DNA from: Candidatus Brocadia sp.
Lineage (GTDB): Bacteria; Planctomycetota; Brocadiia; Brocadiales; Brocadiaceae
Direction of reading: 5' to 3'
DNA length: 32,000 bases
NCBI GenBank assembly: GCA_021650915.1
Contig: CP091279.1
Span: 2,130,001 to 2,162,000, forward strand
Part shown: positions 2,276 to 32,000 of the stretch, in pieces
Numbering within the stretch: position 1 is the stretch's first letter
How the letters are laid out: every line of letters begins with the position of its first letter
The notes under the pieces: model-generated
The model's input: only the letters and a program-made list of their open reading frames with translations
The model's database searches: none
What the model was told of the DNA's origin: nothing
Made by a program: the position numbers and the translations under genes

Positions 2276-2294
2276 GCGATTCCCAAACATTACC

Positions 2295-2324: not shown

Positions 2325-2469
2325 ATCCGAATATTTTTGGTATTTTCGACAGCGAAATTCCTGAATCCTGACTATTGAAAAGGCCTGTGAATCACTTCAA
2401 TTCATTGCAAGGGGTAGAAAAGATACCCTTGGTTTTTCTCAGAATAACACACAAAAGGCATAATTACCT

Positions 2470-5088: not shown

Positions 5089-5158
5089 TTTTTATCGTGT
5101 AACGCACGGAATCCAGTTAACGCAAACAGATAGCAACCTGAAAGTCCATTCTCTCCGC

Positions 5159-7641: not shown

Positions 7642-7655
7642 ATCGGCTTAATACA

Positions 7656-7679
7656 GGGGGCGCATTCCAATGCGCCCCC
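7656..7679 (+). terminator. GC-rich stem-loop after metK (probable terminator)
   Basis: GGGGGCGCA (7656-7664) / TGCGCCCCC (7671-7679) with a 6-nt loop, 15 nt after the metK stop. The downstream T-tract is weak (GCTATTTG). Confidence 0.55.
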
Positions 7680-7753
7680 GCTATTTGATATGCCCTTACG
7701 AATTCAGAGTTGTAAGGTGGACCATTAGAGGATGTATCGATAAATTCAACTAG

Positions 7754-9043
<1,290 letters not shown>

Positions 9044-17078: not shown

Positions 17079-20000
17079 ATGATTGGTATCCGCGCAAAAC
17101 TTATGCTTTTTATGAGCACGTTGGTAATTATCATTAGCACCCTGAGTTGCGTGTTCTTTTTAATTCATGCAAAAAGGCAACAGGAGGAGACGTTGAAAAA
17201 TTTTGGCATGTCCCTTGTCATGCTTCTTGCCCAGGACCACGAAGTGAAATATGCCATGACGTACACCCAGCCGGCATTTCTTGACGCCCCTGTCAAAAGG
17301 ATACGAGCACTTGACCGGGAAGAGGAAATCGGATACTTGCGTATATCAAATGTCCAAACAACCCTGATGGAGGAGAAGACGCCATGGATGGGCATCGATA
17401 TGAAAGAGATTCCTATCCAAAAAGGCAGAGAAAATCAGGAGATACTCTATAGCAATTGCATGCTTGCCTGTTCACAGAAGGCGTTTTACGATTTTTCTCT
17501 GGCAGTGACAGAGGAAAAGACTTTTTCTGAAGAAGCATTTGCCGCACAGGTGCTCGAAGAGATCACGATGAAAGCGGGACAGCATCCCCTGGGTTTTATA
17601 CAAATCGGTTTGTCTTCTCATAAATTGGGCAAGAGGATTCACAGGATTTTTTGGAAAAGTGTTATTCCGCTGGGATTAATTATTATTTCCGGTGGAATAA
17701 GCACTATTATTTTTCTCACGAAGTACCTGGTCTCACCCTTGCGGCAAATGGCAAACGTCACGCTAGATATCGCCAAGGGCGACCTTACTCGTACCGTGGA
17801 CGTCCAGTCATACGATGAAATTGGGCAATTGTCCGTGAATTTCAACAAGATGACCAGGTCGCTGAAGAAATCATATGATGACCTGAAGCAGGAAATTGTG
17901 GAACGCAGGAGGGCTGAGGGATTACTAGGGTTTCGGGTAAAAATCGAAGAGCTTATTGCCGCCATATCGACAAACTTTATCAATCTTCCGCCATCTGAAG
18001 TGGATGCAGGGATAGATCGCGCCCTGCAGCAGATCGGAGAATTTTCTGATGTTGACCGCAGCTATGTCTTTCTTAACACCCCGGACGGAAAGAAGATAGA
18101 CAATACCCACGAGTGGTGCGCCAAAGGGATTCTGCCACAAAAAGAAAACCTTCAGGGGGTATTCGTTGAGCAGTTTCCCTGGGGTATGGAAAAGCTCAGG
18201 CGATTCGAAACACTTCACATCCCCCGGATCAACGATCTCCCAGAAGATGCAAAAGCCGAGAGGGCGCTGCAGCAATCGCAAGAAGTTCAGTCGTGTGTAA
18301 TCGTTCCAATGATTTATGGCGGGTCACTGATGGGACTTTTAGGATTTGATTCGGTGCGCAGAGAAAAGACCTGGACACAGGAAGACATTGCCATGTTAAA
18401 AATGGTGGCGGAAATCTTTGTGAATGCCTTGGAGCACAAGCGCATGGAAGAGGCGCTGCGAAAGGCCAACAGCGAGTTAGAATTGCGCGTTGAAGAACGT
18501 ACTTTAGAACTCTCAAAAACGAATGCAATTCTCAAAGAAGAGATTGTTGAACATAAAAAGGCGCGGGATGCATTGCGGAAGTACGAAATACTCATTTCTG
18601 AAATGACTGATTTGGCTTATATTTGCGACACAGAAGGAAATATCGTATTTGTAAACCCTACCTTTGAAAAACTTACCTCTCACCCACCCGAAGAATTTAT
18701 AGGAAAATCTTTTGCACCTCTCTTTGACGATGAGAACTATAAAAAAGGAATGAGATTTTACACCAATACCCTTGAAGGGGAAAGTCCAAGATTTGAGATT
18801 TATTTCAAAGATACGGGGGTACTGTGTGAATACAATAATATGCCATTACGGGACGATCAGGGAAACATTATTGGAGTAATTGGTATTGCCAGAGATATAA
18901 CTGAACGAAAACGGATGGAAAATATATTGCGGGAAACAAACCAAACCCTTCAAGCCATTATTCTTGCCTCTCCTCTGGCTATCACTGTGCTTGACTCGCG
19001 CGGGTGCGTTAAGATATGGAATCCGTCTGCTGAGCGAATATTTGGTTGGAAGGAACAGGAGGTACTTGGCCACGGCCTTCCCATTGTGTCAAGCGATAAG
19101 CAGCATGAGTTTATTGGCTTGCGTGATCAGGTGTTGCGGGGGGAATCGTTTATGGTGGAGCTATGGAGGCGGAGGAAAGACGGATCTCTTATTAACATCA
19201 GCTTATCGACGGCTCCGCTCTATGGTCACCATGGCAATGTTGAAGGTATCCTGGGAATCATGTCGGATAACACCGAACGGCAAAAAATGATGAACGACTT
19301 ACAGCAGGCAAAGGATTACGCGGAAAATCTTATTGAGACGGCCAATATTATGGTTGTGGAACTTGATGTCATGGGGAATATTCAAATCTTTAACAAGGTT
19401 GCGGAAGAGATCACAGGTTATAAGAAGGAGGAAATTATCGGCAGAAATTGGTTTGAAGTAATTGTGCCAAGAGAGAGAAATCCTTATGTCTGGGAGGAAT
19501 TTAGTCTATGGCAGTCAGGCGGTCCGCTACCAAAGACCATGGAAGCTCCCGTTTTTACAAAATTGGGGAAAAAGAGGTATGTTTCCTGGCAAAACAGTGA
19601 GGTGCGCGAGCAGGGAAAGACTATCGGGACAATTTCCTTTGGAGTCGATATAACCGAGCAAAAGCGAAATAAAGAATTGGTGGAACGCATTCGTCTGATG
19701 GCATTTCTTAAAGATATTGGTATTGCCCTTACTGCCAGTGAACCTTTGCGTGAAATGTTATCCCAGTGCACAGACGCCGTAGTCAGCAACCTTGACGTGG
19801 CATTTACCCGTATATGGACATTCAACGAAAAAGAAAATATCCTGGAATTGCAGGCCAGCTCAGGCAGGTATACCCATATCGATGGCGCTCATGGCCGAAT
19901 TCCCCTTGGAAAATACAAGATTGGTATCATTGCCCGGGATCGTCAGCCACACCTGATAAATTCCGTCATTAACGATCCGCATATCAGTGACAAGGAATGG

Positions 20001-21266
20001 GTGCAGCGGGAAGGTATTGTCGCATTTGCCGGCTATCCTCTGATTGTCAAAGACCGTTTGGTAGGGGTCATAGCGATGTTTGCCCAAAAAACGATTACCG
20101 AGTTTGCTTACAGGGCATTCGTTTCTGCCGGGGATATCATTGCGCTGGGTATCGACCGCAAACAAGCGGAAGAGGCGCTCCGGGCAAGCGAAAGAAAGTA
20201 CAGAATGCTGCTGGAAAATCTTCCTCAGAGGGTATTTTATAAAGATGAGAATTTACGATATGTGTCGTGTAATGAGAATTATGCCCGAGATTTAAAAATT
20301 TCTCCTGATGAAATAGCCGGAAAGACGGATTATGACTTTTACCCGGAGGCGCTTGCGGAAAAATATCGGTCGGATGACAAACGAATCATGATGTTAGAAA
20401 CAACAGAGGATATCGAAGAAAAATATATCCGGGATGGACAAGAATTCACGATCCATACGGTGAAAACCCCTATAAAAGATGAAAAAGGAAAGGTGATTGG
20501 CGTACTTGGTATTTTTTGGGATATTACTGAAAAAATAGCCTTGCAGATGGAAGCAATACGGAGCCGACATCTGGCATCGATCGGTGAGCTTGCTGCAACG
20601 GTAGCTCATGAAATAAACAATCCCATAACGGGTATTATCAACTGTGCCCAGATATTGGTTAATAAGAGTGAAAAAGGAAGCAAGGGGGAGGATATGGGCA
20701 TTCGCATCGTAAAAGAGGGTAAACGGATAGCTGATATCGTAAAAAGTCTTCTCTCTCTTGCCAGGCCGGGTGACAGAAAAGAGCAAAAGGGAGCAGTCTG
20801 TGTTTCTGACATCGTGTCTGACACCCTTGCTCTGGTAGATTCCCAGTTGAAAAAGGACTGCATTGTCCTGGTTCTCAATCTTCCCCACACCTTACCACGG
20901 ATACGCGCACACCATCAGCAAATTCAACAGGTCTTTTTAAATGTAATCAGCAATGCACGATATGCCTTGAATGCCAAATATCCGGGAAGGCATGAAAATA
21001 AAATGCTCGGGATTCGGGGTGAAGCGGTAACTATGGACCATGGTCGTTGGGTAAAGATTACGTTTCATGATACCGGCGCCGGGATACCTTCTGATATTCT
21101 GGATAAGGTAATGAATCCGTTTTTTTCCACGAAACCACGGGGAAAGGGTACGGGACTTGGTTTGAGCATCAGCCACAGCATTGTAAAGGATCATGGCGGT
21201 AAACTTCTGATAGATTCCGTTGAAGGAGAATTTACGGATATAACGATTGTTTTGCCATCAGTGTAA
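17079..21266 (+). CDS. multi-domain sensor histidine kinase (2 TM, HAMP, GAF, 3 PAS, GAF, PAS, HisKA-like, HATPase)
   Basis: 1395-aa ORF. TM1 (LMLFMSTLVIIISTLSCVFFLI) and TM2 (IPLGLIIISGGISTIIFL) flank a ~165-aa extracytoplasmic region. Next are HAMP (PLRQMANVTLDIAKGDLTR...EIGQLSVNFNKMTRSL), GAF and PAS repeats each ending in G(I/V)xxDITE(R/Q/K). The H-box is ASIGELAATVAHEINNPITGI and the ATPase G-box is GKGTGLGLSISHSIVKDHGG. Confidence 0.92.
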   Translation: MIGIRAKLMLFMSTLVIIISTLSCVFFLIHAKRQQEETLKNFGMSLVMLLAQDHEVKYAMTYTQPAFLDAPVKRIRALDREEEIGYLRISNVQTTLMEEKTPWMGIDMKEIPIQKGRENQEILYSNCMLACSQKAFYDFSLAVTEEKTFSEEAFAAQVLEEITMKAGQHPLGFIQIGLSSHKLGKRIHRIFWKSVIPLGLIIISGGISTIIFLTKYLVSPLRQMANVTLDIAKGDLTRTVDVQSYDEIGQLSVNFNKMTRSLKKSYDDLKQEIVERRRAEGLLGFRVKIEELIAAISTNFINLPPSEVDAGIDRALQQIGEFSDVDRSYVFLNTPDGKKIDNTHEWCAKGILPQKENLQGVFVEQFPWGMEKLRRFETLHIPRINDLPEDAKAERALQQSQEVQSCVIVPMIYGGSLMGLLGFDSVRREKTWTQEDIAMLKMVAEIFVNALEHKRMEEALRKANSELELRVEERTLELSKTNAILKEEIVEHKKARDALRKYEILISEMTDLAYICDTEGNIVFVNPTFEKLTSHPPEEFIGKSFAPLFDDENYKKGMRFYTNTLEGESPRFEIYFKDTGVLCEYNNMPLRDDQGNIIGVIGIARDITERKRMENILRETNQTLQAIILASPLAITVLDSRGCVKIWNPSAERIFGWKEQEVLGHGLPIVSSDKQHEFIGLRDQVLRGESFMVELWRRRKDGSLINISLSTAPLYGHHGNVEGILGIMSDNTERQKMMNDLQQAKDYAENLIETANIMVVELDVMGNIQIFNKVAEEITGYKKEEIIGRNWFEVIVPRERNPYVWEEFSLWQSGGPLPKTMEAPVFTKLGKKRYVSWQNSEVREQGKTIGTISFGVDITEQKRNKELVERIRLMAFLKDIGIALTASEPLREMLSQCTDAVVSNLDVAFTRIWTFNEKENILELQASSGRYTHIDGAHGRIPLGKYKIGIIARDRQPHLINSVINDPHISDKEWVQREGIVAFAGYPLIVKDRLVGVIAMFAQKTITEFAYRAFVSAGDIIALGIDRKQAEEALRASERKYRMLLENLPQRVFYKDENLRYVSCNENYARDLKISPDEIAGKTDYDFYPEALAEKYRSDDKRIMMLETTEDIEEKYIRDGQEFTIHTVKTPIKDEKGKVIGVLGIFWDITEKIALQMEAIRSRHLASIGELAATVAHEINNPITGIINCAQILVNKSEKGSKGEDMGIRIVKEGKRIADIVKSLLSLARPGDRKEQKGAVCVSDIVSDTLALVDSQLKKDCIVLVLNLPHTLPRIRAHHQQIQQVFLNVISNARYALNAKYPGRHENKMLGIRGEAVTMDHGRWVKITFHDTGAGIPSDILDKVMNPFFSTKPRGKGTGLGLSISHSIVKDHGGKLLIDSVEGEFTDITIVLPSV

Positions 21267-21521: not shown

Positions 21522-23237
21522 ATGAAGAAAAAAATTCTTATAATCGACGATGAAGAGAATATTCGGTACACCTTTGAAAACTTTCTTGTAGACGAGGGAT
21601 ATGAGGTGTTGTCTGCAAAGGATTACCGAGACGCCTTAATTGCGATTGATACGTCAGATTTTGATCTGATATTTTGCGATATTCTCCTGGACGAGAAGAC
21701 GGGTATTGACATCCTGGGGTATGTTAAGGAGAAGAATCTCATTTGCCCCGTTGTTATGATTACCGGCGCCCCTGATATTGGAACCGCCTCAGAAGCCCTC
21801 CGATTGGGCGCTTTCGACTACATTTCCAAGCCGGTGCTGCAAGACACCTTATTGCGTGTCACAAAGGTGGCATTGCAGCATAAGGCACTTGTTGACGAAA
21901 AGGAGAGATACCAGACAAACCTTGATGCTATATTCCGGAGCGTAAGGGATGCAATTATTACCGTAGACAAGGATTTGGCGGTAGTGGAGATGAACGCGGC
22001 GGCAGAACAAATCTGTGGTTTGTCTCGTAATCTTGTTGGGAATCAACTCAACTCTTTTCAGACACATTGCGGAGGAAGGTGTTCTGAAATTCTTCGTACA
22101 ACTATCGTAGAGAAACAACCTCTTGAGGTAGCAAGTCTTGAGTGCAAACATAGCCATCGTCCACATCAGGTTGTCAGCATTTCCACTAGCCCGCTCATAA
22201 ACAAGAAAGGCGCCTTTGCAGGCGCCGTTTTAGTAGTGAGAGATGATACGCATCTTGTCGAGCTAGAAAGGGATATGAAAGAACGGCATAAATTTTGTAA
22301 TATCATAGGAAAGAGTGAAAAGATACAGATGATTTATTCTTTTATCGAAGACTTAGCGGACGTCCAGACGACCGTCCTGGTGCTGGGCGAGAGTGGGACC
22401 GGGAAAGAACTGGTTGCAGAAGCGATCCATTACAGCGGTGCACGCAGTAGCAAATCCCTGGTCAAGGTGAACTGCTCGGCTTTATCTGAGAATCTGCTTG
22501 AAAGTGAACTCTTTGGGCACGTAAAGGGCTCATTTACCGGGGCTCTTCAGGATAGGATTGGCAGATTTCAGAAGGCGGATGGCGGCACCATTTTTCTGGA
22601 TGAGATTGGCGACATCTCTCCACGGATACAACTCCAGCTGCTGAGGGTCCTCCAGGAAAGGGAATTTGAACGAGTGGGAGACTCAAATCCTGTCAGGGTA
22701 GATGTCCGGGTTATTGCAGCGACGAATCAAAACCTCCGCGAAAAAGTCAAACGGGGAGAGTTCCGCGAGGACCTTTATTACCGGCTCAAGGTAGTAGAAA
22801 TGTGCCTGCCGCCCTTAAGAGACAGGAAGGAAGACATACCGTTGCTGGTAAAACACTTTGTGAAAAAATTCAATAAAAAATTAAACAAAGAAATTTCAGC
22901 AATATCTGCGGATGTCCAGAAGATCTTTATGAACTATACCTGGCCGGGAAATATCCGCGAATTGGAACATACCATGGAGCATGCATTTATCCTTTGCCAC
23001 CAAAACATCATTACGATGGATCATCTGCCACTTAATTTTAAAGAGTTACTTGAACCCCACCGGCCTTCCTTTGAAGACGCGCGAGATGGAGAATTGCGGT
23101 CAATCCGCCGGGCGCTTGAACAGGTTGCATGGAATAAGGTAAGGGCTGCACGGTTGTTAGGAATGAGCCGAAGAACGCTCTATCGAAAGATAAAAGACTA
23201 TAAGATAGGAGTGAAGGATGATGATTATAAAATATAA
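21522..23237 (+). CDS. sigma54-dependent response regulator (REC-PAS-AAA+-Fis HTH), NtrC family
   Basis: 571-aa ORF. The receiver has DD (9-10) and phospho-acceptor Asp53 (DLIFCDILL). The central PAS-like segment is LDAIFRSVRDAIITVD. The AAA+ core has GESGTGKE, the sigma54-contact loop GSFTGA (GAFTGA variant) and GGTIFLDEIG. The C-terminal HTH is AARLLGMSRRTLYRKIK. Confidence 0.95.
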   Translation: MKKKILIIDDEENIRYTFENFLVDEGYEVLSAKDYRDALIAIDTSDFDLIFCDILLDEKTGIDILGYVKEKNLICPVVMITGAPDIGTASEALRLGAFDYISKPVLQDTLLRVTKVALQHKALVDEKERYQTNLDAIFRSVRDAIITVDKDLAVVEMNAAAEQICGLSRNLVGNQLNSFQTHCGGRCSEILRTTIVEKQPLEVASLECKHSHRPHQVVSISTSPLINKKGAFAGAVLVVRDDTHLVELERDMKERHKFCNIIGKSEKIQMIYSFIEDLADVQTTVLVLGESGTGKELVAEAIHYSGARSSKSLVKVNCSALSENLLESELFGHVKGSFTGALQDRIGRFQKADGGTIFLDEIGDISPRIQLQLLRVLQEREFERVGDSNPVRVDVRVIAATNQNLREKVKRGEFREDLYYRLKVVEMCLPPLRDRKEDIPLLVKHFVKKFNKKLNKEISAISADVQKIFMNYTWPGNIRELEHTMEHAFILCHQNIITMDHLPLNFKELLEPHRPSFEDARDGELRSIRRALEQVAWNKVRAARLLGMSRRTLYRKIKDYKIGVKDDDYKI

Positions 23238-23534: not shown

Positions 23535-23752
23535 CTTATAAAAAAATTGTGAAAGCGAGAAAAGCAGGTAGAACTTTTTGATGAAGGGAGGGTATAGGGG
23601 ATGAATATATTTATTACCTTTTTGATAATTAGCATTCTAATCACCATCACAGCTCTCGTTTTTTTGTGAGATTTGTGAAAAAATACCGGAGGTTTTTAAG
23701 TCTTGGTCAATGCAGAGGATTTATTTCGTTGGAAGGGAGGGCTTGCGTGGAA

Positions 23753-24295
23753 ATGTCAAAAGTTGTTTATAAATTAATGGAAAACGAACTGATGCGGCTG
23801 TTGTTTTCTGGTGTAACCGATCTTACCTATATTTATGACATGGATGGAAATATTTTGTTTGTTAATAAAGTATTTGAAAAATTTACGGGTCACAGACCGG
23901 AGGAGTTTTACGGGAGGCCATTCGCTGCCCTCTTTGACGAAGAGAACTTAAAAAAAGCAAAGGATGCCTTTGCCGAGACGTTGAAAGGAAAGAGTCCTGA
24001 ATATAAGCTTTCCTTTCAGAATACCAGGATATTGTGCGAGTACAGAAACTTTCCGATAAAGGATCAAAGCGGCAATCTTGTTGGCGTAATGGGTATTGCC
24101 AGGGATGTTACCGCGCGAGGGCGCGAAGAGGAGCAGTTAAAGGCGTTAAACGAATCTCTGGAGAAAAGGGTAATTGAACATACTTCAAGACTCGTGGAAT
24201 TAAATAAAGAATTAATGAGAGAAACCAACGAACGCGAACGACTTGAAAAGGAGTTGAAACACGGTATGGAGAAACAAAAGCAATCCATGTTATGA
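23753..24295 (+). CDS. stand-alone PAS domain protein with C-terminal coiled coil
   Basis: The ORF track starts at 23666, but an ATG at 23753 follows GGAAGGGAGGG (23741-23751), giving 180 aa. The PAS fold ends in GIARDVT, followed by a charged heptad-like tail (EEQLKALNESLEKRVIEHTSRLVELNKELMRETNERERLEKELK). Confidence 0.8.
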   Translation: MSKVVYKLMENELMRLLFSGVTDLTYIYDMDGNILFVNKVFEKFTGHRPEEFYGRPFAALFDEENLKKAKDAFAETLKGKSPEYKLSFQNTRILCEYRNFPIKDQSGNLVGVMGIARDVTARGREEEQLKALNESLEKRVIEHTSRLVELNKELMRETNERERLEKELKHGMEKQKQSML

Positions 24296-24315: not shown

Positions 24316-24618
24316 ATGAAGTATAAAATATCAGTCATCATTGTGGGCGGAGATCATTTAGGAAGCATACCAAGGGAGCTTGATAAAATCGGGATTACGG
24401 AAATTCAACACCTGACCGGCAGGGGTGGGCAAAAGATGCGGGGGAAAATTCCAGAGAACGTTGATTTTATTATTCTCCTTTACGATTTTGTAAATCATAA
24501 CCTGGCATATAAAGTAAAGAGATTAGCCGTGAACCGGAAAATCCCTATTATCTATGCAAAGAGATCATGGTCTTCCATTTATCAAAAAATCAAGGATAGC
24601 CGGATAACGATCCCCTGA
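24316..24618 (+). CDS. DUF2325 family protein
   Basis: 100-aa ORF 20 nt after the PAS gene. VIIVGGD...VDFIILLYDFVNHNLAYKVKRLA...IPIIYAKRSWSSI fits the DUF2325 pattern (vGG...aD.vi..td.vsH.....vk). Confidence 0.75.
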   Translation: MKYKISVIIVGGDHLGSIPRELDKIGITEIQHLTGRGGQKMRGKIPENVDFIILLYDFVNHNLAYKVKRLAVNRKIPIIYAKRSWSSIYQKIKDSRITIP

Positions 24619-24815
24619 TTTCATATGGGTTTTGTGCGATGTCGCACAAAGGTTGTTGCTGAAGTTCATCAACCTGCTGCCATATCCTCGCCGGGTTCTT
24701 TCGATGCCCTTTTTGAAGAACCCAAAACAATTCAGAATTTGTATACACCCGTAAGCAAGTGGCAATCCTTCTTCCCGTGTCCGTTGTATGGCAATTGTGG
24801 AGTGGTAAATTGTCA

Positions 24816-24844
24816 TTGACATTAATTTTGCAACGCTGTAAAAT
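24816..24844 (+). promoter_or_regulatory. near-consensus sigma70-type promoter for the acpS/radical-SAM/KS operon
   Basis: TTGACA (24816-24821), 17-bp spacer, TAAAAT (24839-24844), about 75 nt upstream of the acpS ATG. Confidence 0.55.
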
Positions 24845-24920: not shown

Positions 24921-25307
24921 ATGTATGTCGGTATTGATATTGTTGAAATAAGACGTATTGAAAAATTATTCTCAGCCAATGAGGATTTTTTGCGAAGGAT
25001 TTATACCGAAAAAGAGGTGGAATACTGCAACCAAAAGAAGAACAAATATCAGCATTTTGCAGCTCGTTTCGCCTCAAAAGAGGCAATGTTCAAGGCGCTG
25101 GGAACTGGTTGGGCTGACAAAATGAAATGGACGGATATTGAGCTCTTAAATGATAAAAAGGGGAGACCGTATTTAAATCTCTACGGCAGGGTAAAAGAAT
25201 TGGCAGATGAAAAACGGATTGGTGATATTTCGGTGTCATTGTCACACTGTCATGACTATGCCATTGCCCAGGTTTTATTGGTGCCAAAAAAAGAGGATTG
25301 TTCATGA
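24921..25307 (+). CDS. acpS: holo-[acyl-carrier-protein] synthase (AcpS-type 4'-phosphopantetheinyl transferase)
   Basis: 128-aa ORF with YVGIDIVEIRRIE at the N-terminus, FAARFASKEAMFKALG, and ISVSLSHCHDYAIAQVLL at the C-terminus. This is the classic AcpS size and motif set. Confidence 0.9.
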   Translation: MYVGIDIVEIRRIEKLFSANEDFLRRIYTEKEVEYCNQKKNKYQHFAARFASKEAMFKALGTGWADKMKWTDIELLNDKKGRPYLNLYGRVKELADEKRIGDISVSLSHCHDYAIAQVLLVPKKEDCS

Positions 25308-26785
25308 AAAAACTTGTACTTATCAATCCTCACCCGATTGGAAATGTGGGGGAGGAAAATGTCTCCGTATTAAATCAAATGCCGGTGAATCTCGGCTATC
25401 TGAAGACATTAACGCCAAAACACTGGCAGGTTGATATTATTGATGAAACCCAGGAGCCTGCAATTGACGAAAAGACGGGGGATACCACTTTTGGCGGCGC
25501 CGATCTGGTGGGCATTACGTCGGTAAGTTATCAGGCACATCGCGCGTACCAGATAGCTGCCGCCTGTCGGAAGCGGGGGATACCGGTGATCATGGGCGGT
25601 ATCCATGCGACCAGCTACCCGGAGGAGGCGGCACAACATGTGGATTGTGTGGTGACCCGGGAAGCCGTTACCCTCTGGGAAAAGATTATTGGCGACTTTG
25701 AAAAGGGCTGTCTCCAAAAACGATACGACGGTAGTCTTACGCCGATGGAGTTGTATCGTGGATTACGATCCGATAGAAAATACCTGAAGGATAAATATAA
25801 ATACCGCTACTCCGGCATTATCACGACTGCCGGATGTCCCTTTAGCTGTGAGTTTTGCTCTGTGCCGCAGTTTCAGGGCAGGAAATACCGGGAAAGGCCG
25901 ATTGAAGACGTGCTTGATGAATTCGAATCTATCAAGGGCCAATATCGCGGTTTGATCCTGACGGATGAGAATTTCTACGGACACAGCAAAAAATCCAATG
26001 AGCGTGTCCGCGACCTTTTCAAGGGCATGGTGGATCGCGGCATTTACCAGAACTGGTTTGGGTTCACCTCCCTTAATATTTATAAAGACGACGAAACCCT
26101 CGAATATATGAGGAAGAGCGGGTGTGTTGGAGTGCTCATCGGCATAGAATCCATCAATGAAGAAGCCTTGAAGACGATGAACAAGAACGTAAATCTGCGT
26201 ATCTCCATTGAAAATTATTTTGAGGCGATAGCCAATATCCGCAAACACGGCCTTGCCGTGTGGGGAACCATGGTCTTTGGTAACGATGCCGACACCCCTG
26301 AGACCTTCAAACAAGTTGCCGATTTTGTCCTGGATTCCCATGTCGATATCATGACCTGTGGTATTTTATGTCCATTCATCAACACACCGCTGTATCATCG
26401 GCTGAACGGTGAAGGACGGCTTTTCAGGACTAACTTCCCGGAAGACTGGAAGTATTATACATCTCATCATCTCACCTACGTCCTGAAAAATATGTCCCTG
26501 CAGGAACTTATCGATGGATTTCAGTATTTGTATGACAGGATTTATGCCACGGAGGTGCTCCGGCAGAGATTTCAGAATGCAAAAGAGGTGCTGAAAGATA
26601 ATATGAATGCCGCTATGTTTGCCTTCAGGGTCAACCTGGATTGGCAGACCGTATACCAGCACCTGATCCAAAATCTCAAAGAATTGCAGACAACGGGGTT
26701 TTATAATGAGGCATTAAAACAATATAATCAATCGAAAAAAGCCGGGAAAAAGGTGGAATTGACGCCGATTGAGGTTTCGTCCTGA
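25304..26785 (+). CDS. B12-binding-domain radical SAM enzyme (class B)
   Basis: I prefer the ATG at 25304 (AGAGGA at 25292-25297; ATGA overlap with the acpS stop) over the TTG at 25298. The N-terminal cobalamin-binding-like domain has VGITSVSYQAHRAY and VIMGGIHATSYPEE. The radical SAM cluster motif CPFSCEFC (CxxxCxxC) is at 25835-25858. Confidence 0.9.
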   Translation: MKKLVLINPHPIGNVGEENVSVLNQMPVNLGYLKTLTPKHWQVDIIDETQEPAIDEKTGDTTFGGADLVGITSVSYQAHRAYQIAAACRKRGIPVIMGGIHATSYPEEAAQHVDCVVTREAVTLWEKIIGDFEKGCLQKRYDGSLTPMELYRGLRSDRKYLKDKYKYRYSGIITTAGCPFSCEFCSVPQFQGRKYRERPIEDVLDEFESIKGQYRGLILTDENFYGHSKKSNERVRDLFKGMVDRGIYQNWFGFTSLNIYKDDETLEYMRKSGCVGVLIGIESINEEALKTMNKNVNLRISIENYFEAIANIRKHGLAVWGTMVFGNDADTPETFKQVADFVLDSHVDIMTCGILCPFINTPLYHRLNGEGRLFRTNFPEDWKYYTSHHLTYVLKNMSLQELIDGFQYLYDRIYATEVLRQRFQNAKEVLKDNMNAAMFAFRVNLDWQTVYQHLIQNLKELQTTGFYNEALKQYNQSKKAGKKVELTPIEVSS

Positions 26786-26901: not shown

Positions 26902-28110
26902 ATGCCACAAGTCGTCATAACGGGTTTAGGATTAGTTACACCCATTGGGATTGGCGTCAGACAAAGCTGGGAGGCCTTCCTCCGGGGCGTGAACGGGGCT
27001 AATGAGATGAAGTCCTTCGATACCGCAAAATACAAAGTGCATCGCTCCTGTGAGGTAAAAAATTTCCAATGGGACTTTGAACTAGAAAATCAGATCAAAG
27101 AAAACACGATCCATAAATACGTCTACTACGCAGCCCGGGAGGCATTGCAGGAAAGCGGTTTGTCGGGTGATAAGAAATTCGATCGTGAACGATTTGGCAT
27201 TGCCATCGGGACGTTAGCAGCCGAGCTGACGCCCTTTGAAAGGCTCTTGCGATTAGACACCTCAAAAAAAGACACCGGTTTCGATAACATCGTTGCAGCC
27301 GTTTACCCGCCCAATTCGATCACCAATATTCTGTCCAAAAATTTTGAATTTGAAGGTCCAACCATGATCTCGCTGAACGCCTGCTCGTCGGGCAATCACG
27401 CCATTGCATGGGCGTATGACCACCTTGTGGATAATAAGGTTGATGTGGTAATGGTTGGTGGTGGTGACATGATCCCTCAAACAGAATTTACCCATTTTCA
27501 CAACCTCAAAGCGCTGGCGCCAGAACGTTGTCAGCCATTCGATAAAAACCGCCAGGGACTAATGATCGGCGAAGGGGCAGGGATACTGATCATGGAACGT
27601 TACGAATTTGCCAAAAAACGCGGGGCAACGATTATTGCTGAGATGGCAGGTTATGGGTTAAGTTGCGATGGATTTCACATGACCGCGCCCCATCCTGAGG
27701 GCGATGGCGCTGTGAGATGCATGAGCGATGCGCTAAAAATGGTAAACCTTTCTCCCCAAGAAATTGGTTACATCAATGCCCACGGTACTGGTACGCCCCA
27801 CAACGACAAGACGGAAACCATTGCCATAAAGCGCGTGTTTGGCGATGGTGCGTATAAGGTCCCCAGCAGTTCTACCAAATCGATGATAGGTCACCTCATG
27901 GGTGCAGCCAGCGCTGTGGAATCAGTTGTCTGCTGTCTGGTATTGAGACATGGAGTAGTTCCTCCGACGATTAATTACGAAACCCCTGATCCGGAATGCG
28001 ACCTCGATTACGTGCCCAATACGGCACGCGAGTTAAAAGTGGGTCACGTGTTAAACAACTCCTTTGCCTTTGGCGGTAACAACGCTACAACGATATTCAG
28101 CAAATTATGA
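26902..28110 (+). CDS. fabF: beta-ketoacyl-ACP synthase, FabF/FabB-like, catalytic triad intact
   Basis: 402-aa ORF collinear by eye with E. coli FabF. Active-site Cys161 in ISLNACSSGNH (TGC 27382-27384), His in CDGFHMTAPHP, His in YINAHGTGTPHND, then SSTKSMIGHLMGAASAVE and NSFAFGGNNATTIF. Confidence 0.92.
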   Translation: MPQVVITGLGLVTPIGIGVRQSWEAFLRGVNGANEMKSFDTAKYKVHRSCEVKNFQWDFELENQIKENTIHKYVYYAAREALQESGLSGDKKFDRERFGIAIGTLAAELTPFERLLRLDTSKKDTGFDNIVAAVYPPNSITNILSKNFEFEGPTMISLNACSSGNHAIAWAYDHLVDNKVDVVMVGGGDMIPQTEFTHFHNLKALAPERCQPFDKNRQGLMIGEGAGILIMERYEFAKKRGATIIAEMAGYGLSCDGFHMTAPHPEGDGAVRCMSDALKMVNLSPQEIGYINAHGTGTPHNDKTETIAIKRVFGDGAYKVPSSSTKSMIGHLMGAASAVESVVCCLVLRHGVVPPTINYETPDPECDLDYVPNTARELKVGHVLNNSFAFGGNNATTIFSKL

Positions 28111-29339
28111 AAAAACGAGTCGTTATTACTGGTTTAGGTGTTGTGTCTCCCCTTGGTTGCGGTAAAGAGGCGTTTTGGAATAGCCTCATTGAGGGAAAGT
28201 CAGGTATCACACCCATATCTTCTCTCGACGTATCTCCTTACAAGTGTAAGCTCGGCGGCGAAGTAAGAGACCTCAAACCCGAAGTATACCTTGGCAGTAA
28301 AGGCTTGAAGTACTTGAACAAGGGGACACGTTTCCTGGGGTCTGCCTCTAAGATGGCGCTGGATGATGCAAATCTGCCGCAGGACGGTTCCCTGTCGGAT
28401 CAGATGGGCATTGTCATTGGCTCGTCTCTTGGCAACTTTTCAGAAACTACGGATTATTTTTACGAAATTATCAGGAACAACCCATCCGAATTGTCACCCA
28501 TGCTCAGCTATGACGTTGCCTTGAATTCTTCCATCAATTACGTATCCGTCATCTTTAAAATCAAGGGACTCGCCCGTACCATATCTGCAGGTTTTACGTC
28601 CAGTGCCGATGCCGTCGGAGATGCATTTAAAATGATACGGCGTGGTATGGCAAAGGTGATCGTGGCAGGCGGTGTTGAACAGATATCCATTGATCTGTAC
28701 CTGATATTTTATCTGCGCGGCTTGTTATCGGGTCTTGATGGCACAAGAGAGGCAAGCCTGCCCTTTGATAAAGAGAGAAACGGTTTTGTCATGGCCGAAG
28801 GCAGTTACGTGATTATCCTGGAAGAACTCCAGCATGCCCTTGACAGGGGAGCCCATGTCTATGCGGAGGTAAAGGGATTTGGCAGCACCTTCGTGGGTGG
28901 CAAAAACCATCCGACAGGTATACGAGTGCGTCGTGCCGAAAGGGCCATGCGTGAAGCGTTGGAAGATGCGGGGGTAAAGAAGGAAGATGTTGGCCTGATC
29001 AGTACAAATGCCAATGGATGCAAGGTACAGGATGCCGTTGAGGCAAAGGCGATCCGATCTTTATTTGACACGGGGAGCAGTCAAATACCGATATCTGCAA
29101 TAAAATCAAACATCGGTGAATCGTACGGGACCGCCGGTGCAGCGCAACTCATTTCATCAGTCATGTCGATAAACACAGGCCTGATACCTCCTATTATCAA
29201 TCACCGCGACAAAGATCCGGAAATCAATCTGAATCTCATCCTTGAGAAACCCATTAAAAAAGAAATCAGAAATGCAGCGTTAAACACCAGGGATTATGAG
29301 GGAAATAATTCATGCCTGGTCATAAGTAGGATGGATTGA
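28107..29339 (+). CDS. ketosynthase-like protein lacking catalytic Cys and His (chain-length-factor-like partner)
   Basis: 410-aa ORF whose ATG overlaps the upstream KS stop (ATGA 28107-28110). It keeps the thiolase-fold N-terminus RVVITGLGVVSPLG and DKERNGFVMAEG. It has SAGFTSSADAVG where the Cys loop should be (TTT ACG at 28593-28598), and TNANGC in place of NAHGT. Confidence 0.85.
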   Translation: MKKRVVITGLGVVSPLGCGKEAFWNSLIEGKSGITPISSLDVSPYKCKLGGEVRDLKPEVYLGSKGLKYLNKGTRFLGSASKMALDDANLPQDGSLSDQMGIVIGSSLGNFSETTDYFYEIIRNNPSELSPMLSYDVALNSSINYVSVIFKIKGLARTISAGFTSSADAVGDAFKMIRRGMAKVIVAGGVEQISIDLYLIFYLRGLLSGLDGTREASLPFDKERNGFVMAEGSYVIILEELQHALDRGAHVYAEVKGFGSTFVGGKNHPTGIRVRRAERAMREALEDAGVKKEDVGLISTNANGCKVQDAVEAKAIRSLFDTGSSQIPISAIKSNIGESYGTAGAAQLISSVMSINTGLIPPIINHRDKDPEINLNLILEKPIKKEIRNAALNTRDYEGNNSCLVISRMD

Positions 29340-29632: not shown

Positions 29633-30050
29633 CTAGGTCGGACTGCCGTGTCTCCGCTCAAGTCTCTGAACGTGTTCTACGTCCGTCTCGCCACTGATGG
29701 CAAGGCGCGCAGTCTCAATCCTGCCCACGCAAAACTGCATTCGATTGAGGGACATGATCTCGACAGTGTGTTCGCGCAGGTAGTCAATAAGCCCGGAGAT
29801 ACAAAACACCCTCTGAGGAACCTCTGTCTTGAATTCCGCTTCACCCGTGAAGACGACAACCGACTTGATGGCGCCGGACGGTAGAAAATCAAGGAGGCCT
29901 TGCACCGCCCGAACGTGTCGATCGTTCTGAAATATTGGGTTCTGGAATTTGAACCTGTGGTTGAACAAGACTTGAGTCCATCTCGCCTGCTTCGCGTTGG
30001 CGAAGATCCAACCCTTGTGGTCCTTAGTCTCAACGACGAACACACCGAAC
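29633..30050 (-). pseudogene. NERD (nuclease-related domain) gene fragment, interrupted by IS630 and N-terminally truncated
   Basis: The 136-aa frame FGVFVVETKDHKGWIFANAKQARWTQVLFNHRFKFQNPIFQNDRHVRAVQ fits the NERD core as I remember it. The frame is cut at 30051 by the IS630 end. The region is 58-63% GC by hand count, against about 35% in the adjacent spacer. Confidence 0.65.
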
Positions 30051-30082
30051 CTAGTGTGTTGACAAATTAATTACAATACATT

Positions 30083-30538
30083 ATGCTGTGCTTCATGAGA
30101 CAAGCAAAAATTCAACTTACCGAGGAAGAACGAGCAACCTTGAAGTCATTTCGCTCCAAGGGGCAGCACATGACAAGAGAAGTCAATCGTGCGCATATAT
30201 TATCGGCTTTAGACCAAAATGTGCCTGAAAAACATATTCTGTCTGTTCTGGGTGTTGGCCGCACTGCCATTTGGCGGACACGCTCTGCATATCTTGAGAA
30301 GGGCTTGGATTATGCACTTCACGATGTTGTCAGACCCGGTCAGCCGGTAAAATACGGAACCAACCAACAAGCCGAAGTCGTAGCTTTGGCATGTAGTGCA
30401 CCACCGAAGGGTGCCAGGCGCTGGACAATCGCCTTGTTGACTGAAGCAATAAGGCAACAGCTAAAACTTAGAAAGATTAGTCGTGAAAGTATCCGTCTCT
30501 TTCTAAAAAAAACGACTGTAAGCCGTGGCGGAAATTGA
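30083..30538 (+). CDS. IS630-family transposase, N-terminal HTH part (orfA frame)
   Basis: 151-aa ORF with a helix-turn-helix-like N-terminus (ERATLKSFRSKGQHMTREVNRAHILSAL) and RWTIALLTEAI. It ends 26 nt after an A8 run. Confidence 0.85.
   Translation: MLCFMRQAKIQLTEEERATLKSFRSKGQHMTREVNRAHILSALDQNVPEKHILSVLGVGRTAIWRTRSAYLEKGLDYALHDVVRPGQPVKYGTNQQAEVVALACSAPPKGARRWTIALLTEAIRQQLKLRKISRESIRLFLKKTTVSRGGN
30505..30512 (+). promoter_or_regulatory. A8 run: candidate -1 frameshift / transcriptional slippage site joining orfA and orfB
   Basis: In the orfA frame the sequence reads CTA AAA AAA ACG (an A AAA AAA heptamer). A -1 shift gives ...LKKNDCKPWRKLMWCIGK..., restoring the KPW...WCI junction typical of uninterrupted IS630 transposases. 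The orfB frame is open from 30487. Confidence 0.5.
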
Positions 30539-31197
30539 TGTGGTGTATTGGTAAATTGACTGAGGAATACCGCCAAAGGATGTATGATTTGCTGGAACTC
30601 TACACGAGGTCTTATTGTGAGGACGAGCCAGTGATTTGCGTAGACGAGAAGAGTAAGCAGCTTTTGGAACAACCGCGCCTCTCAATTCCTGCCAGTCCGG
30701 GCAATCCTGTCAAAGAGGACTGCGAGTATAAACGTGCCGGCACCCGTAATATTTTCATGGCAGTTGAACCTAAGGGTGGTTGTAGACAGGTTGAAGTGAC
30801 AACCCGTCGTACCAAGAGAGATTTTGTCCAGTTCATCGGCCATTTGGTAAAAAAAGTCTATGTAAGGGCGCTCAAGATTCATCTGGTGTTGGACAATCTT
30901 AATACTCATTTTCGCAGTAGTTTTGAAGAAATATTGGGTGTTGAAGAAGCAACCCAGATGTTGGAACGAGTAGAATTTCATTATACTCCCAAGCATGCCA
31001 GTTGGCTTAATATGGCTGAAATTGAAATCGGCATCATGGATCGGCAGTGTACTGGGTGCCGAATACCAAACGAACAAACCCTTCGGTCGGAAGTCGCTGC
31101 GTGGACTGACCGACGCAATCAGGCCAAATCAACAATAGATTGGAAGTTTACACGGCAAGATGCTGATCAAAAGCTGTCAAGGCACTATGTTTCGTAA
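30535..31197 (+). CDS. IS630-family transposase, DDE catalytic part (orfB frame)
   Basis: 220-aa ORF in the -1 frame relative to orfA. Candidate DDE residues lie in VICVDEKS, LVLDNLNTH and ASWLNMAEIEIG. Confidence 0.85.
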   Translation: MMWCIGKLTEEYRQRMYDLLELYTRSYCEDEPVICVDEKSKQLLEQPRLSIPASPGNPVKEDCEYKRAGTRNIFMAVEPKGGCRQVEVTTRRTKRDFVQFIGHLVKKVYVRALKIHLVLDNLNTHFRSSFEEILGVEEATQMLERVEFHYTPKHASWLNMAEIEIGIMDRQCTGCRIPNEQTLRSEVAAWTDRRNQAKSTIDWKFTRQDADQKLSRHYVS

Positions 31198-31302
31198 TTA
31201 ATTTGTTGTAATACTAGAGCGGCTCTGCCGCAACCGAAGCTTTAAAACCGTCCTCCAATAGTGTATATTTAATTTTTTGTAACACTTTAGTTCTTTGAAA
31301 AA

Positions 31303-32000
31303 TTAACAAGCGATTTTGCAAGCAAACCCAGAAGGCGTTTTCACCATAAGGGCATTTTTTGCGCTAGCCAGAAGATTTTCCACTGGATTGATTCTTTGTA
31401 ATTCAGCAGAACGAAGCAGAGACATAAGGATGGCCTGTGTCTTAGCGCCATCCTCAGAGCGGTTCTGCTGTGAGACCTTTCTGGTCAATACTGGCTTTCG
31501 CATCTGTTGCTCAGCATGGTTATTATAGGGACTGACATCCTCATGTTCCAGGAACGTAAAGAGTTCCTGTTTATGGCGGTTCAGGCGTTTGGTCAATCTT
31601 TGTGCATCTTTGTGCATCTTTATCCTGGCAGGGTGTTGCCAAAAACTGTTCAAGCCTGCAATACAGTCTATTTTTGAGCCTGAGAAAGCATGCCGGGTTT
31701 ATCTGGTGCTTTTTCTCGGATAGCCGGATGGCATCCCTGAGTAATCGGGAGAGTTTTCTCCTGAAACTTTTCCATGAGACAGAATGGTTGTAGGTGTCTA
31801 CTTTCACGAGTTCCGTAAAGAGATGATAGAAACACCGCTGCTTTGCCAGTGCGCTTGTCTTGTTATAAGCGCCCCAGAAGTCGCAGATCAGGATGCCCTT
31901 GAAGAGTCTGCCTAAGAACCTTTTTATGACAGGCGACCCCCGATTCCGTGTTATAAGGTAGTAGCAGAGGGTTTTGGTGGTAAAACACCATAACCAATGG
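31303..32000 (-). pseudogene. IS66-family transposase, frameshifted, 5' part beyond the window
   Basis: The minus-strand frame entering at 32000 reads ...LWCFTTKTLCYYLITRNRGSPVIKRFLGRLFKGILICDFWGAYNK...KQRCFYHLFTEL (DDE region pattern). The C-terminal frame reads ELFTFLEHEDVSPYNNHAEQQMRKPVLTRKVSQQNRSEDGAKTQAILMSLLRSAELQRINP, the typical IS66 tail. The two frames are offset by a 10-bp duplication. Confidence 0.8.
31601..31620. repeat. 10-bp perfect tandem duplication (TGTGCATCTT x2) causing the IS66 frameshift
   Basis: TGTGCATCTT at 31601-31610 is repeated at 31611-31620. Deleting one copy fuses the frames to ...PCQDKDAQRLTKRLNRHKQELFTF... (translated by hand). Confidence 0.9.

Follow-up and report, generated by a model that had tools for sequence, protein, structure and literature searches.

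A ketosynthase-like protein with a replaced catalytic triad, the probable partner subunit of the adjacent intact ketosynthase in a Candidatus Brocadia gene cluster

Introduction

The best described relatives of the genes analysed here belong to anammox 'Cluster I', which comprises amxACP, amxFabZ, amxFabF2, a phytoene-desaturase-like gene (PDH) and a radical SAM (rSAM) gene. Structure 9s5h is the Brocadia fulgida amxFabF2/amxFabFmut heterodimer, termed ketosynthase (KS)/chain-length-factor-like; the two proteins co-purify and co-elute, are inactive alone and active together, and their complex decarboxylates malonyl-ACP and yields acetoacetyl-ACP (bioRxiv 10.64898/2026.05.19.726425). According to the same preprint, a helix-loop-helix of amxFabFmut walls the acyl tunnel of the partner and requires the partner to become ordered, residues of amxFabFmut alter which chain lengths the heterodimer prefers, and its own tunnel has no access to a catalytic triad. 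Electrostatic asymmetry was said to drive the heterodimerisation. The amxFabFmut of Scalindua crystallised as a homodimer with a disordered interface motif, and the closest structural relative of amxFabF2 is Iga11, the KS partner of Iga12 (bioRxiv 10.64898/2026.05.19.726425). The preprint deals with Cluster I only.

The cluster kuste2802-2805 of Kuenenia stuttgartiensis encodes, in this order, AcpS, a B12-binding rSAM enzyme, a FabF and a ketosynthase-like protein, Kuste2805, which was named 'putative FabB' (Rattray et al. 2009, PMC2649909) and later 'non-canonical FabB' (Javidpour et al. 2016). Its residues Phe163, Asn298, Asn300, Cys302, Lys328, Glu333 and Gln342 (FabB numbering) were listed in 2009 (Table 2, Rattray et al. 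2009, PMC2649909), when clusters of this kind were also proposed as one of four candidate ladderane clusters. The only experiment on the Kuenenia orthologues of the pair was their expression in E. coli, which gave insoluble protein and no product. No study testing the Brocadia pair was found in the literature searched.

Classic chain-length factors (CLFs) of type II polyketide synthases (PKSs) have Gln where a KS has its catalytic Cys. Here we describe the Brocadia counterpart of Kuste2805, referred to below as the dead KS, in a stretch of 32,000 nucleotides (the window).

Results

The four-gene cluster

The gene order in the window is AcpS, B12-binding rSAM enzyme, intact KS, dead KS. The features of the region are as follows.

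24630-24651: terminator-like hairpin closing the preceding DUF2325 gene (consensus scan; suggestive)
24816-24844, + strand: promoter-like site upstream of the four-gene cluster, TTGACA-17-TAAAAT, 11/12 (consensus scan; suggestive)
24921-25307, + strand: AcpS holo-ACP synthase, 128 aa, Kuste2802 orthologue (Pfam ACPS, E 5.8e-21)
25298-26785, + strand: B12-binding rSAM enzyme of 495 aa ending in a DUF4070 tail, Kuste2803 orthologue (Pfam B12-binding, Radical_SAM and DUF4070)
26902-28110, + strand: intact KS, presumed catalytic subunit, 402 aa, Kuste2804 orthologue (both Pfam ketoacyl-synthase domains)
28107-28110, + strand: ATGA overlap of the dead KS start (ATG, 28107-28109) and the KS stop (TGA, 28108-28110)
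28107-29339, + strand: dead KS, 410 aa, presumed non-catalytic, chain-length-factor-like subunit, Kuste2805 orthologue

The products of the first and the last gene are identical to proteins deposited for B. fulgida (AcpS, exact match, KKO20980.1; dead KS, 100% identity, KKO20977.1). The rSAM enzyme is 74-96% identical among its anammox orthologues and scored below the cut-off of the rSAM_ladder_B12 family TIGR04072 (79 bits vs 360). The intact KS (B. fulgida accession UJS19188.1) has Cys161, His294, Lys326 and His331, with Phe390 at the gate, and its triad is retained in 34 of 34 orthologues.

The catalytic residues of the dead KS

The dead KS is a thiolase-fold protein and contains both the N- and C-terminal ketoacyl-synthase domains (PF00109, 5.4e-34; PF02801, 2.5e-26). 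It fell below every NCBIfam KS cut-off, as illustrated by the fabF family TIGR03150 (322.2 bits, cut-off 493.75) and PRK07314 (318.6 bits, cut-off 387); the intact KS exceeded the latter with a score of 406. To place its residues we aligned it, with MAFFT and HMMER, to the upstream KS and to the FabF proteins of E. coli (NC_000913.3) and B. subtilis, and compared them with those of 42 dead-KS orthologues, each from a separate species-level genome.

28593-28595, + strand: Phe163 where FabF has the nucleophile Cys163 (codon TTT; Phe in 42 of 42 orthologues)
29007-29009, + strand: Asn301, aligned with His303 of E. coli FabF (codon AAT; Asn in 40 of 42 orthologues)
29103-29147, + strand: 'K-E-Q' signature Lys333, Glu338 and Gln347, common to amxFabFmut and a wider dead-KS clade

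Within the signature, Lys333 occupies the Lys335 position and is thus a retained residue, Glu338 stands at His340 and Gln347 at Glu349 (Glu and Gln each in 42 of 42 orthologues). The Cys-His-His triad is therefore absent from the dead KS, replaced by Phe163, Asn301 and Glu338, as it is in 40-42 of the 42 orthologues, and the GFGG gating loop reads D-Y397-E-G. All five residues (Cys, His, Lys, His and Glu) are intact in the 34 partner KSs and in 38 FabFs fetched from other phyla.

An earlier sequence-only reading had reported the open reading frame, the codons TTT ACG at 28593-28598 (Phe163-Thr164) in a loop devoid of Cys, and the overlap of the dead KS start with the stop of the intact KS; all of these details hold, as does its hand alignment of Phe with the catalytic Cys. 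It had labelled the His of the VNAHGT motif as His340, which in the alignment to FabF is His303, and it counted the loss of one catalytic His. The loss is real, and it extends to both histidines, because the change from KSMTGH to KSNIGE removes His340 besides His303. The recurrence of the substitutions in 42 orthologues rules out sequencing error or chance as their cause.

Judged from these residues, the dead KS is a catalytically incompetent protein of the FabF fold and not an elongating ketosynthase: Phe, Asn and Glu have taken the places of Cys, His and His, and the protein should be capable of neither acyl-enzyme formation nor malonyl-ACP decarboxylation.

Predicted structure and the helix-loop-helix

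A monomer AlphaFold2 model of the dead KS, built with an alignment of 110 sequences from four KS families, had a FabF fold with a pLDDT of 91.7. Its nearest folds in a Foldseek PDB set extending to April 2026, which does not contain 9s5h, were FabFs with TM 0.92-0.93. The only lower-confidence run of more than one block (pLDDT 68-75) coincided with the segment corresponding to the tunnel-walling motif of amxFabFmut; isolated blocks of 10 residues around 61-70, 261-270 and 321-330 dipped to 77-80.

28434-28526, + strand: helix-loop-helix, residues 110-140, assigned by homology to the motif that walls the partner tunnel in the paralogue

In this segment Ser134, Val137 and Ala138 occupy the columns of amxFabFmut Phe135, Thr138 and Val139, and by column mapping they are invariant in the 42 orthologues. 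A simple charge count on the helix-loop-helix and the partner helix did not reproduce the asymmetry reported for the paralogue, not even on the paralogue's own published sequences.

Relationship to Cluster I and to other ketosynthases

Among solved structures, the best match of the dead KS was 9s5h chain C (amxFabFmut, E 1.1e-90) and that of the upstream KS was 9s5h chain B (amxFabF2, E 4.5e-123). Compared with the Cluster I counterparts of a Brocadia genome (locus L081), the window proteins were 47% (KS), 39% (dead KS) and 53% (rSAM) identical, so the whole module is paralogous; the window KS/dead-KS pair is, by these comparisons, a paralogue of the 9s5h pair encoded by different genes.

In a neighbour-joining tree all dead KSs formed one clade (100/100 bootstraps), the Kuste2804-type KSs clustered with amxFabF2 (100/100), and the dead-KS and active-KS clades together made one group (70/100). 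The window dead KS was placed within FabF-like sequences, in a clade apart from amxFabFmut, and the core clade of Kuste2805 orthologues had 86/100 bootstraps. The alignments and the tree identify the window protein as a member of the Kuste2805 orthologous group, which itself falls in a wider dead-ketosynthase clade sharing the Lys/Glu/Gln signature.

Conservation, gene order and selection

In a scan of species representatives the dead KS was 56-87% identical to proteins of 41 anammox loci (Kuenenia 72%, as for the Kuenenia hertensis orthologue), and the next matches reached at most 37%. An exhaustive search of representatives added orthologues from deep-branching anammox bacteria (about 45-52% identity) and non-anammox relatives with the same signature (34-44%), which tempers the idea of an anammox-restricted protein.

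The order AcpS, rSAM, KS, dead KS recurs in anammox loci L002-L042 and L091 and is found in Brocadia, Jettenia, Kuenenia, Loosdrechtia, Scalindua and Bathyanammoxibiaceae, with the position of AcpS conserved as well. The ATGA overlap is also present in loci L042 and L091. It is not universal, because the spacing between KS and dead KS ranges from -4 to 4453 nt in 34 anammox loci (longest, about 4.4 kb, in locus L019); in 22 of the 34 no more than 100 nt separate the genes, and wherever both lie on one contig the dead KS follows the KS. No KS was found within 9 kb upstream of the dead KS in locus L018. Deep-branching anammox lineages hold both KS pairs within one array.

The trio of dead KS, KS and rSAM also occurs outside anammox bacteria, in Blastocatellia and other uncultured bacteria. 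In non-anammox loci L086 and L087 all three proteins match those of the window best, and in loci L088-L090 the KS/dead-KS pair matches Cluster I best; such matches indicate that the genes are inherited there as a set of one type. In other organisms we found fusions of an active KS and a dead KS in the same order.

The dead KS is under purifying selection: dN/dS was 0.055-0.11 in 10 of 11 pairs, compared with 0.03-0.10 for the partner KS. The eleventh pair, a very close one (dS 0.07), gave 0.27.

Discussion

We consider it probable that the dead KS serves as the non-catalytic half of a heterodimeric ketosynthase, with the intact KS immediately upstream as the active subunit. Its role would then be structural: it would dimerise with the upstream KS, its helix-loop-helix with Ser134, Val137 and Ala138 would form part of the wall of the acyl-binding tunnel of the KS, and through this wall it would set the chain lengths or shapes that the KS elongates. 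The pair would act on ACP-bound lipid intermediates jointly with the B12 rSAM enzyme co-transcribed with it, and the KS, dead KS and rSAM of the AcpS cluster would be the second copy of a module that also stands among the anammox Cluster I lipid genes. Heterodimer formation, tunnel shaping and a role in the synthesis of ladderanes or other lipids are all suggested here by homology to the Cluster I pair. The sequence-only reading had likewise proposed a non-condensing partner of the upstream KS, a role that homology and gene context, with chains B and C of 9s5h as the best matches, support well. Its implied novelty did not survive: the inactive KS is real and its part as a partner probable, but the losses of catalytic residues had been reported for Kuste2805 in 2009 (PMC2649909) and the partner-subunit idea was established for the paralogue in 2026.

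The dead KS could instead pair with another KS, for example the housekeeping FabF or amxFabF2, or act as a homodimeric scaffold or an ACP-binding protein. In some genomes it lies 0.8-4.5 kb from the Kuste2804-type KS, and in locus L018 the two are non-adjacent; the joint array of both pairs in deep-branching anammox bacteria makes cross-pairing physically conceivable, and the Scalindua amxFabFmut homodimer demonstrates that dead subunits can self-associate. However, the interface motif of that homodimer is disordered, the KS-then-dead-KS order is retained in the 34 loci where both are on one contig, and in the non-anammox loci KS, dead KS and rSAM are inherited jointly as one type. We therefore regard a different partner, or none, as unlikely.

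It is quite improbable that the dead KS catalyses a different reaction by itself at a non-canonical site, for example the joining of a short acyl chain to a preformed ladderane unit. The idea was proposed for the non-canonical FabF paralogues by Rattray et al., who took the deviations as signs of a different substrate and function (PMC2649909), and it would agree with the purifying selection on the gene and with the strong conservation of the replaced residues (Phe, Glu and Gln in all 42 orthologues, Asn in 40). A structural role, however, predicts equal conservation of these residues. No nucleophile is left at the Cys position, both His residues for decarboxylation and enolate stabilisation are missing, the gating loop is DYEG, and the paralogous amxFabFmut is inactive alone, with a tunnel that does not reach any triad.

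A classic type II PKS CLF (KS-beta), priming by decarboxylation of malonyl-ACP at its own pseudo-active site, would also be a Cys-less KS-like protein beside an intact KS, and the paralogous complex does decarboxylate malonyl-ACP. This explanation is very improbable and already contradicted by the alignment, in which the Cys position holds Phe instead of Gln and both His are lost. Among solved structures the dead KS is much closer to FabFs (E 2.5e-73) than to either subunit of the actinorhodin pair (CLF, 7.2e-50; KS, 3.2e-47), and the tree places it with FabF-derived proteins. ApeC of E. coli CFT073, the chain-length factor of the aryl polyene (APE) system, was considered as a relative and rejected (240 aa, E 0.003 over 73 residues, no meaningful similarity). 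The sequence-only reading was thus right that the substitutions are unlike those of the classic CLF. Its argument against decarboxylative priming stands for the dead subunit itself, since a CLF-type, Gln-dependent mechanism is inapplicable without Gln at the Cys position. It does not carry over to the complex: because the paralogous heterodimer decarboxylates malonyl-ACP, a reaction which we assume to take place at the site of the intact KS, the window complex may well prime itself.

Decay of a functionless duplicate, which would fit the faster evolution of the dead KS relative to its neighbours (Brocadia-Scalindua identity 56-58%, vs 64-66% in the KS and 74-77% in the rSAM), is effectively refuted by selection and conservation, with a reading frame that is full length throughout the anammox families (42 species-level genomes), the dN/dS values given above and a confident fold prediction, and we reject a pseudogene.

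Ladderane synthesis in anammox bacteria is a long-standing problem, and we know of no pathway step that has been reconstituted. For the window pair, the 2026 structure of the sister pair offers a concrete model. The smaller tunnel residues of the dead KS (Ser134 and Ala138, vs Phe135 and Val139) suggest that its complex might take longer or bulkier intermediates than the Cluster I complex, which prefers C6-C8. We offer, tentatively and as a possibility we would not favour, that the Kuste2804/2805-type pair with its B12 rSAM enzyme is a second, functionally distinct KS/dead-KS elongation module, and that the trio of KS, 'K-E-Q' dead KS and rSAM is widespread and predates anammox. A further module of this kind, with tunnel residues unlike those of Cluster I, would bear on the stage of chain assembly at which each module acts, as would the non-anammox relatives. 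If the trio is a widespread, uncharacterised lipid-modifying system, neither module would by itself be ladderane-specific.

Comparison with known systems

Housekeeping FabF, represented by B. subtilis FabF (4ls5), shares with the dead KS its fold from end to end (TM 0.92-0.93, 33% identity) as well as the N-terminal RVVITG and the DKxRNGF motifs. It differs in that its triad, gating loop and Glu349 are all replaced in the dead KS, and in being a homodimer.

The actinorhodin CLF (1tqy chain B) resembles the dead KS in having a KS fold, no nucleophilic Cys and a gene adjoining that of its KS, and like this CLF the dead KS is expected to heterodimerise and to shape the product tunnel. Unlike CLFs of the actinorhodin type, it has no Gln at the Cys position. 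Its origin from a FabF-like ancestor appears, from the neighbour-joining tree, to be independent of that of the actinorhodin CLF, and its context is fatty-acid-like whereas that of the actinorhodin CLF is an aromatic polyketide cluster. The aryl polyene protein ApeC and the ishigamide protein Iga12 are chain-length factors of highly reducing type II PKSs, non-Gln partner subunits of a KS that makes reduced, lipid-like chains; the best 60 matches of the dead KS among solved structures included FabFs but not Iga12.

The crystallised amxFabFmut (Kuste3606/Broful02170) comes from the same species as the window, B. fulgida. Both it and the window dead KS have Asn, Lys, Glu and Gln at the positions of His303, Lys335, His340 and Glu349, and both genes directly follow an intact KS. 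It is nevertheless a paralogue and not an orthologue, in a separate clade, with Val or Thr instead of Phe at the Cys position and Phe135, Thr138 and Val139 in place of Ser134, Val137 and Ala138 in the tunnel. The window cluster contains AcpS and rSAM but, unlike Cluster I, no amxACP, amxFabZ or phytoene-desaturase-like gene.

The closest described protein is Kuste2805, the orthologue of the dead KS in the same type of cluster. Residues Phe163, Asn301, Asn303, Cys305, Lys333, Glu338 and Gln347 of the window protein reproduce the pattern published for it. The two differ in source genus (Brocadia fulgida vs Kuenenia) and at the gate, where the window dead KS has Tyr397 and the 2009 table lists Phe for Kuste2805 (PMC2649909).

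Active-site residues of the dead ketosynthase

The product of 28107-29339 (the dead KS) was aligned with the intact ketosynthase encoded just upstream (the KS), with E. coli FabF (NC_000913.3), with orthologues, and with both chains of PDB 9s5h, a Candidatus Brocadia fulgida heterodimer of an active subunit (chain B, amxFabF2) and a dead subunit (chain C, amxFabFmut). The placements against E. coli FabF were unambiguous.

Table. Dead KS residues at E. coli FabF positions
Cys163: Phe163
His303: Asn301
Thr305: Asn303
Thr307: Cys305
Lys335: Lys333 (kept)
His340: Glu338
Glu349: Gln347
GFGG gating loop: D-Y397-E-G

The sequence-only reading had described the loss of the catalytic Cys and of a catalytic His, and the motifs it cited were all right. 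The Cys position is indeed taken by Phe163 (Phe163-Thr164, TTT ACG at 28593-28598). The loss of histidine also stood, but not its number, as both histidines are gone (Asn301 at His303, Glu338 at His340); this stricter alignment placed no Cys and neither His at the catalytic positions. The VNAHGT histidine had been labelled His340 and is actually His303. The upstream KS retained Cys161, His294, His331, Lys326 and Phe390. With His340 and Glu349 lost, the conserved Lys/Glu/Gln trio at FabF Lys335/His340/Glu349 (the K-E-Q signature) may serve to keep a buried ion pair intact.

The substitutions were then checked among orthologues, which carried Phe at the Cys position in 42/42 cases, Asn at His303 in 40/42, and Lys, Glu and Gln at Lys335, His340 and Glu349 in 42/42 each, while the partner KS retained its catalytic residues in 34/34.

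A classic chain-length factor (CLF) was ruled out, since the dead KS has no Gln and resembles FabF more closely than it does the actinorhodin CLF, in line with the earlier remark that it is unlike the classic CLF. A competent FabF was ruled out by the loss of the triad and the gating loop and by scores below all NCBIfam cut-offs, and an ApeC-like protein by the length of ApeC (240 aa) and the absence of real similarity. Judged by its sequence, the dead KS is the Kuste2805 orthologue and a paralogue of amxFabFmut.

Gene cluster and flanks

The features of the window are as follows (cluster genes by Pfam).

418-2181, formate-tetrahydrofolate ligase
6472-7641, SAM synthetase
7784-9043, S-adenosylhomocysteine hydrolase
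17079-21266, multi-PAS sensor histidine kinase-like ORF, 1395 aa (from its translation)
21522-23237, sigma-54 response regulator, upstream of the cluster
23666-24295, PAS-only protein, upstream of the cluster
24316-24618, DUF2325 protein, upstream of the cluster
24921-25307, co-oriented with the dead KS, AcpS
25298-26785, co-oriented with the dead KS, B12-binding radical SAM enzyme (rSAM)
26902-28110, co-oriented with the dead KS, KS, 402 aa
28107-29339, plus strand, dead KS, 410 aa, both ketoacyl-synthase domains
29633-30043, minus strand, truncated NERD-domain ORF, a mobile-element remnant 3' of the dead KS
30083-30538, IS630-like element, HTH ORF, split from the DDE_3 ORF
30535-31197, IS630-like element, DDE_3 ORF, split from the HTH ORF
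31303-31653, minus strand, IS66 transposase fragment

Kuenenia stuttgartiensis has the same set of AcpS, rSAM, KS and dead KS genes in its kuste2802-2805 cluster. The dead KS is 100% identical to KKO20977.1 (Candidatus Brocadia fulgida), which assigns the window to an anammox bacterium. As had been read from the sequence, its ATG (28107-28109) overlaps the TGA of the KS (28108-28110). The window rSAM, the only one scanned, scored 79 bits against NCBIfam TIGR04072 ('rSAM_ladder_B12'), far below the cut-off of 360, so the named family misses this enzyme.

Three mobile-element remnants (29633-31653) come straight after the dead KS, and in this genome the 3' side of the cluster consists of such debris. 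Three upstream proteins were sought in other loci: the regulator and the PAS protein keep their position, as does DUF2325 in Brocadia loci, whereas Jettenia yielded just the regulator and the PAS protein (for example L003, L010, L041 and L020). The formate-tetrahydrofolate ligase, SAM synthetase and S-adenosylhomocysteine hydrolase genes (418-9043) precede the cluster with the radical SAM gene by 16-24 kb and are probably housekeeping.

Conservation and selection

When one genome was scanned for each species, the dead KS turned up in 41 anammox loci (Brocadia, Jettenia, Kuenenia, Loosdrechtia and Scalindua) at 56-87% identity to the window protein, beneath which identity fell sharply to 37% or less, where ordinary FabFs were found. 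The order AcpS-rSAM-KS-dead KS was retained in every anammox locus whose contig suffices. KS and dead KS were spaced by -4 to 0 nt in 5/34 loci, 1-100 nt in 17/34, 101-600 nt in 9/34 and 0.8-4.5 kb in 3/34, so the ATGA overlap is common, not universal. The wide spacings belong to a few Brocadiaceae (L019 5547-10001, L028 8911-10001, L009 9153-10001), and in one locus additional to the 34 (L018, 1-9134) the 9 kb preceding the dead KS contained no KS.

The dN/dS of the dead KS was 0.055-0.11 in 10/11 pairs and 0.27 in the eleventh, a very close pair (dS 0.07); that of the KS was 0.03-0.10. These ratios point to strong purifying selection on the dead KS gene. Across anammox loci it diverges faster than its neighbours.

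Relatives beyond the known anammox clusters

When 1.84 billion cluster representatives were searched exhaustively, the hits went beyond anammox sequences. Full-length KS-like proteins in about two dozen additional clusters bore the dead KS signature: Lys335 retained, His340 always Glu, Glu349 mostly Gln, and Phe frequent at Cys. In a neighbour-joining tree with 100 bootstraps, a single clade held every dead KS, amxFabFmut and the window protein among them (100/100), Kuste2804-type KSs grouped with amxFabF2 (100/100), and the two clades were united in 70/100. On this neighbour-joining topology, one KS/dead-KS pair may have arisen from FabF, with both members then duplicated together. Loci from other genomes are listed below; Cluster I is the anammox lipid gene cluster kuste3603-3608.

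L086 7799-14133, Blastocatellia MAG GCA_035652355.1: KS 50%, dead KS 41% and rSAM 58% identical to the window genes
L087 3840-11024, uncultured bacterium: KS 51%, dead KS 37% and rSAM 56%
L088-L090, non-anammox: Cluster-I-type pairs with ACP, FabZ-like and phytoene-desaturase-like genes
L091 8052-21206, Bathyanammoxibiaceae, deep-branching anammox: 2802-2805 cluster and Cluster I about 6 kb apart
L085 1-12202 (Logan SRR13254584 contig), a related, deep-branching anammox lineage: both clusters as a single array

Outside anammox bacteria, the same three genes recur in L086-L090 (an intact KS, a dead KS with the K-E-Q signature and a B12/DUF4070 radical SAM enzyme); all three best match the window type in L086 and L087 and the Cluster I type in L088-L090. 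As the whole trio matches one type, the modules appear to be passed on whole and not to be specific to ladderane producers. Genome-mining papers already record 'ladderane-like' clusters outside anammox bacteria (PMC9902471).

The two candidate lipid clusters are unlinked in Brocadia and linked in the deep-branching anammox lineages. The L085 array holds FabZ, amxFabF2-like, amxFabFmut-like and phytoene-desaturase-like genes, three B12-rSAMs, a Kuste2804-like KS, a Kuste2805-like dead KS and an enoyl-CoA hydratase; in L091, an OYE-like reductase and an SDR come after AcpS-rSAM-KS-dead KS, with the Cluster-I-like genes about 6 kb off on the opposite strand.

The representative search also gave about 21 distant single-chain fusions (750-880 aa, P0243-P0389, about 30% identity), in which an intact KS with Cys-His-His makes up the N-terminal part and a dead KS-like domain the C-terminal part; the K-E-Q signature is present in some of them (P0263, P0283). 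Their domain order, active before dead, is the gene order of the window.

Structure and proposed role

The best solved-structure matches were 9s5h chain C for the dead KS (E 1.1e-90) and chain B for the upstream KS (E 4.5e-123). According to the May 2026 preprint on this complex (bioRxiv 10.64898/2026.05.19.726425), amxFabF2 and amxFabFmut co-purify, are singly inactive, and jointly decarboxylate malonyl-amxACP and yield acetoacetyl-ACP. The earlier argument against decarboxylative priming holds for the dead subunit alone and may not extend to the complex: the paralogous one decarboxylates malonyl-ACP, at a site that the preprint does not name and that we assume to be the intact KS.

An AF2 monomer model of the dead KS, built from a 110-sequence alignment, was confident (pLDDT 91.7, pTM 0.93). 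Its only multi-block low-confidence run was the helix-loop-helix of residues 110-140 (pLDDT 68-75), with dips to 77-80 in isolated 10-residue blocks near 61-70, 261-270 and 321-330. For the sister proteins, the same motif is reported to be ordered in the heterodimer but disordered in a homodimer of dead subunits (bioRxiv 10.64898/2026.05.19.726425). The closest folds in the available PDB copy were FabFs, with B. subtilis FabF first (TM 0.92-0.93), which is also the closest structural homologue of amxFabFmut (bioRxiv 10.64898/2026.05.19.726425).

In the sister complex, Phe135 and Val139 of amxFabFmut line the amxFabF2 acyl tunnel and influence chain-length preference (bioRxiv 10.64898/2026.05.19.726425). 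In our alignment columns, Ser134/Val137/Ala138 of the dead KS map onto amxFabFmut Phe135/Thr138/Val139 and are invariant in 42 orthologues, and the tunnel residues of the window KS equal those of amxFabF2 save for a conservative change of Ile113 to Leu109. In our proposal the dead KS would pair with the neighbouring KS and supply a wider wall to its acyl tunnel, which would fit acyl chains of greater length or bulk than the C6-C8 that the Cluster I complex prefers.

Comparison with known systems

The earlier observation was thus confirmed with one labelling error, and its interpretation was largely right; the finding itself is not new. Table 2 of Rattray et al. 2009 (PMC2649909) gives Phe163, Asn298, Asn300, Cys302, Lys328, Glu333 and Gln342 for Kuste2805, the same pattern as in the window protein, so the substitutions were already published, and the partner-subunit mechanism was shown in 2026 for the sister pair. 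Javidpour et al. 2016 (PMC4790861) called Kuste2805 a 'non-canonical FabB'; kuste2802-2805 expressed in E. coli were mostly insoluble, with only the kuste2802 product in the soluble lysate, and gave no new fatty acids (PMC4790861). Liao et al. is a further paper that bears on this cluster.

The preprint, whose scope is Cluster I only (kuste3603-3608), makes no mention of the 2804/2805 pair. With the Brocadia locus L081 as the Cluster I reference, the window genes were 53% (rSAM), 47% (KS/amxFabF2) and 39% (dead KS/amxFabFmut) identical, which makes the window a paralogous copy of the three-gene module and not the published genes. The preprint places amxFabFmut 'just upstream' of amxFabF2 (bioRxiv 10.64898/2026.05.19.726425), whereas the intact KS came first in 3/3 Cluster I loci fetched (L081 8723-11242, L083, L084), an order that agrees with the locus tags (3605, 3606) and with the window pair.
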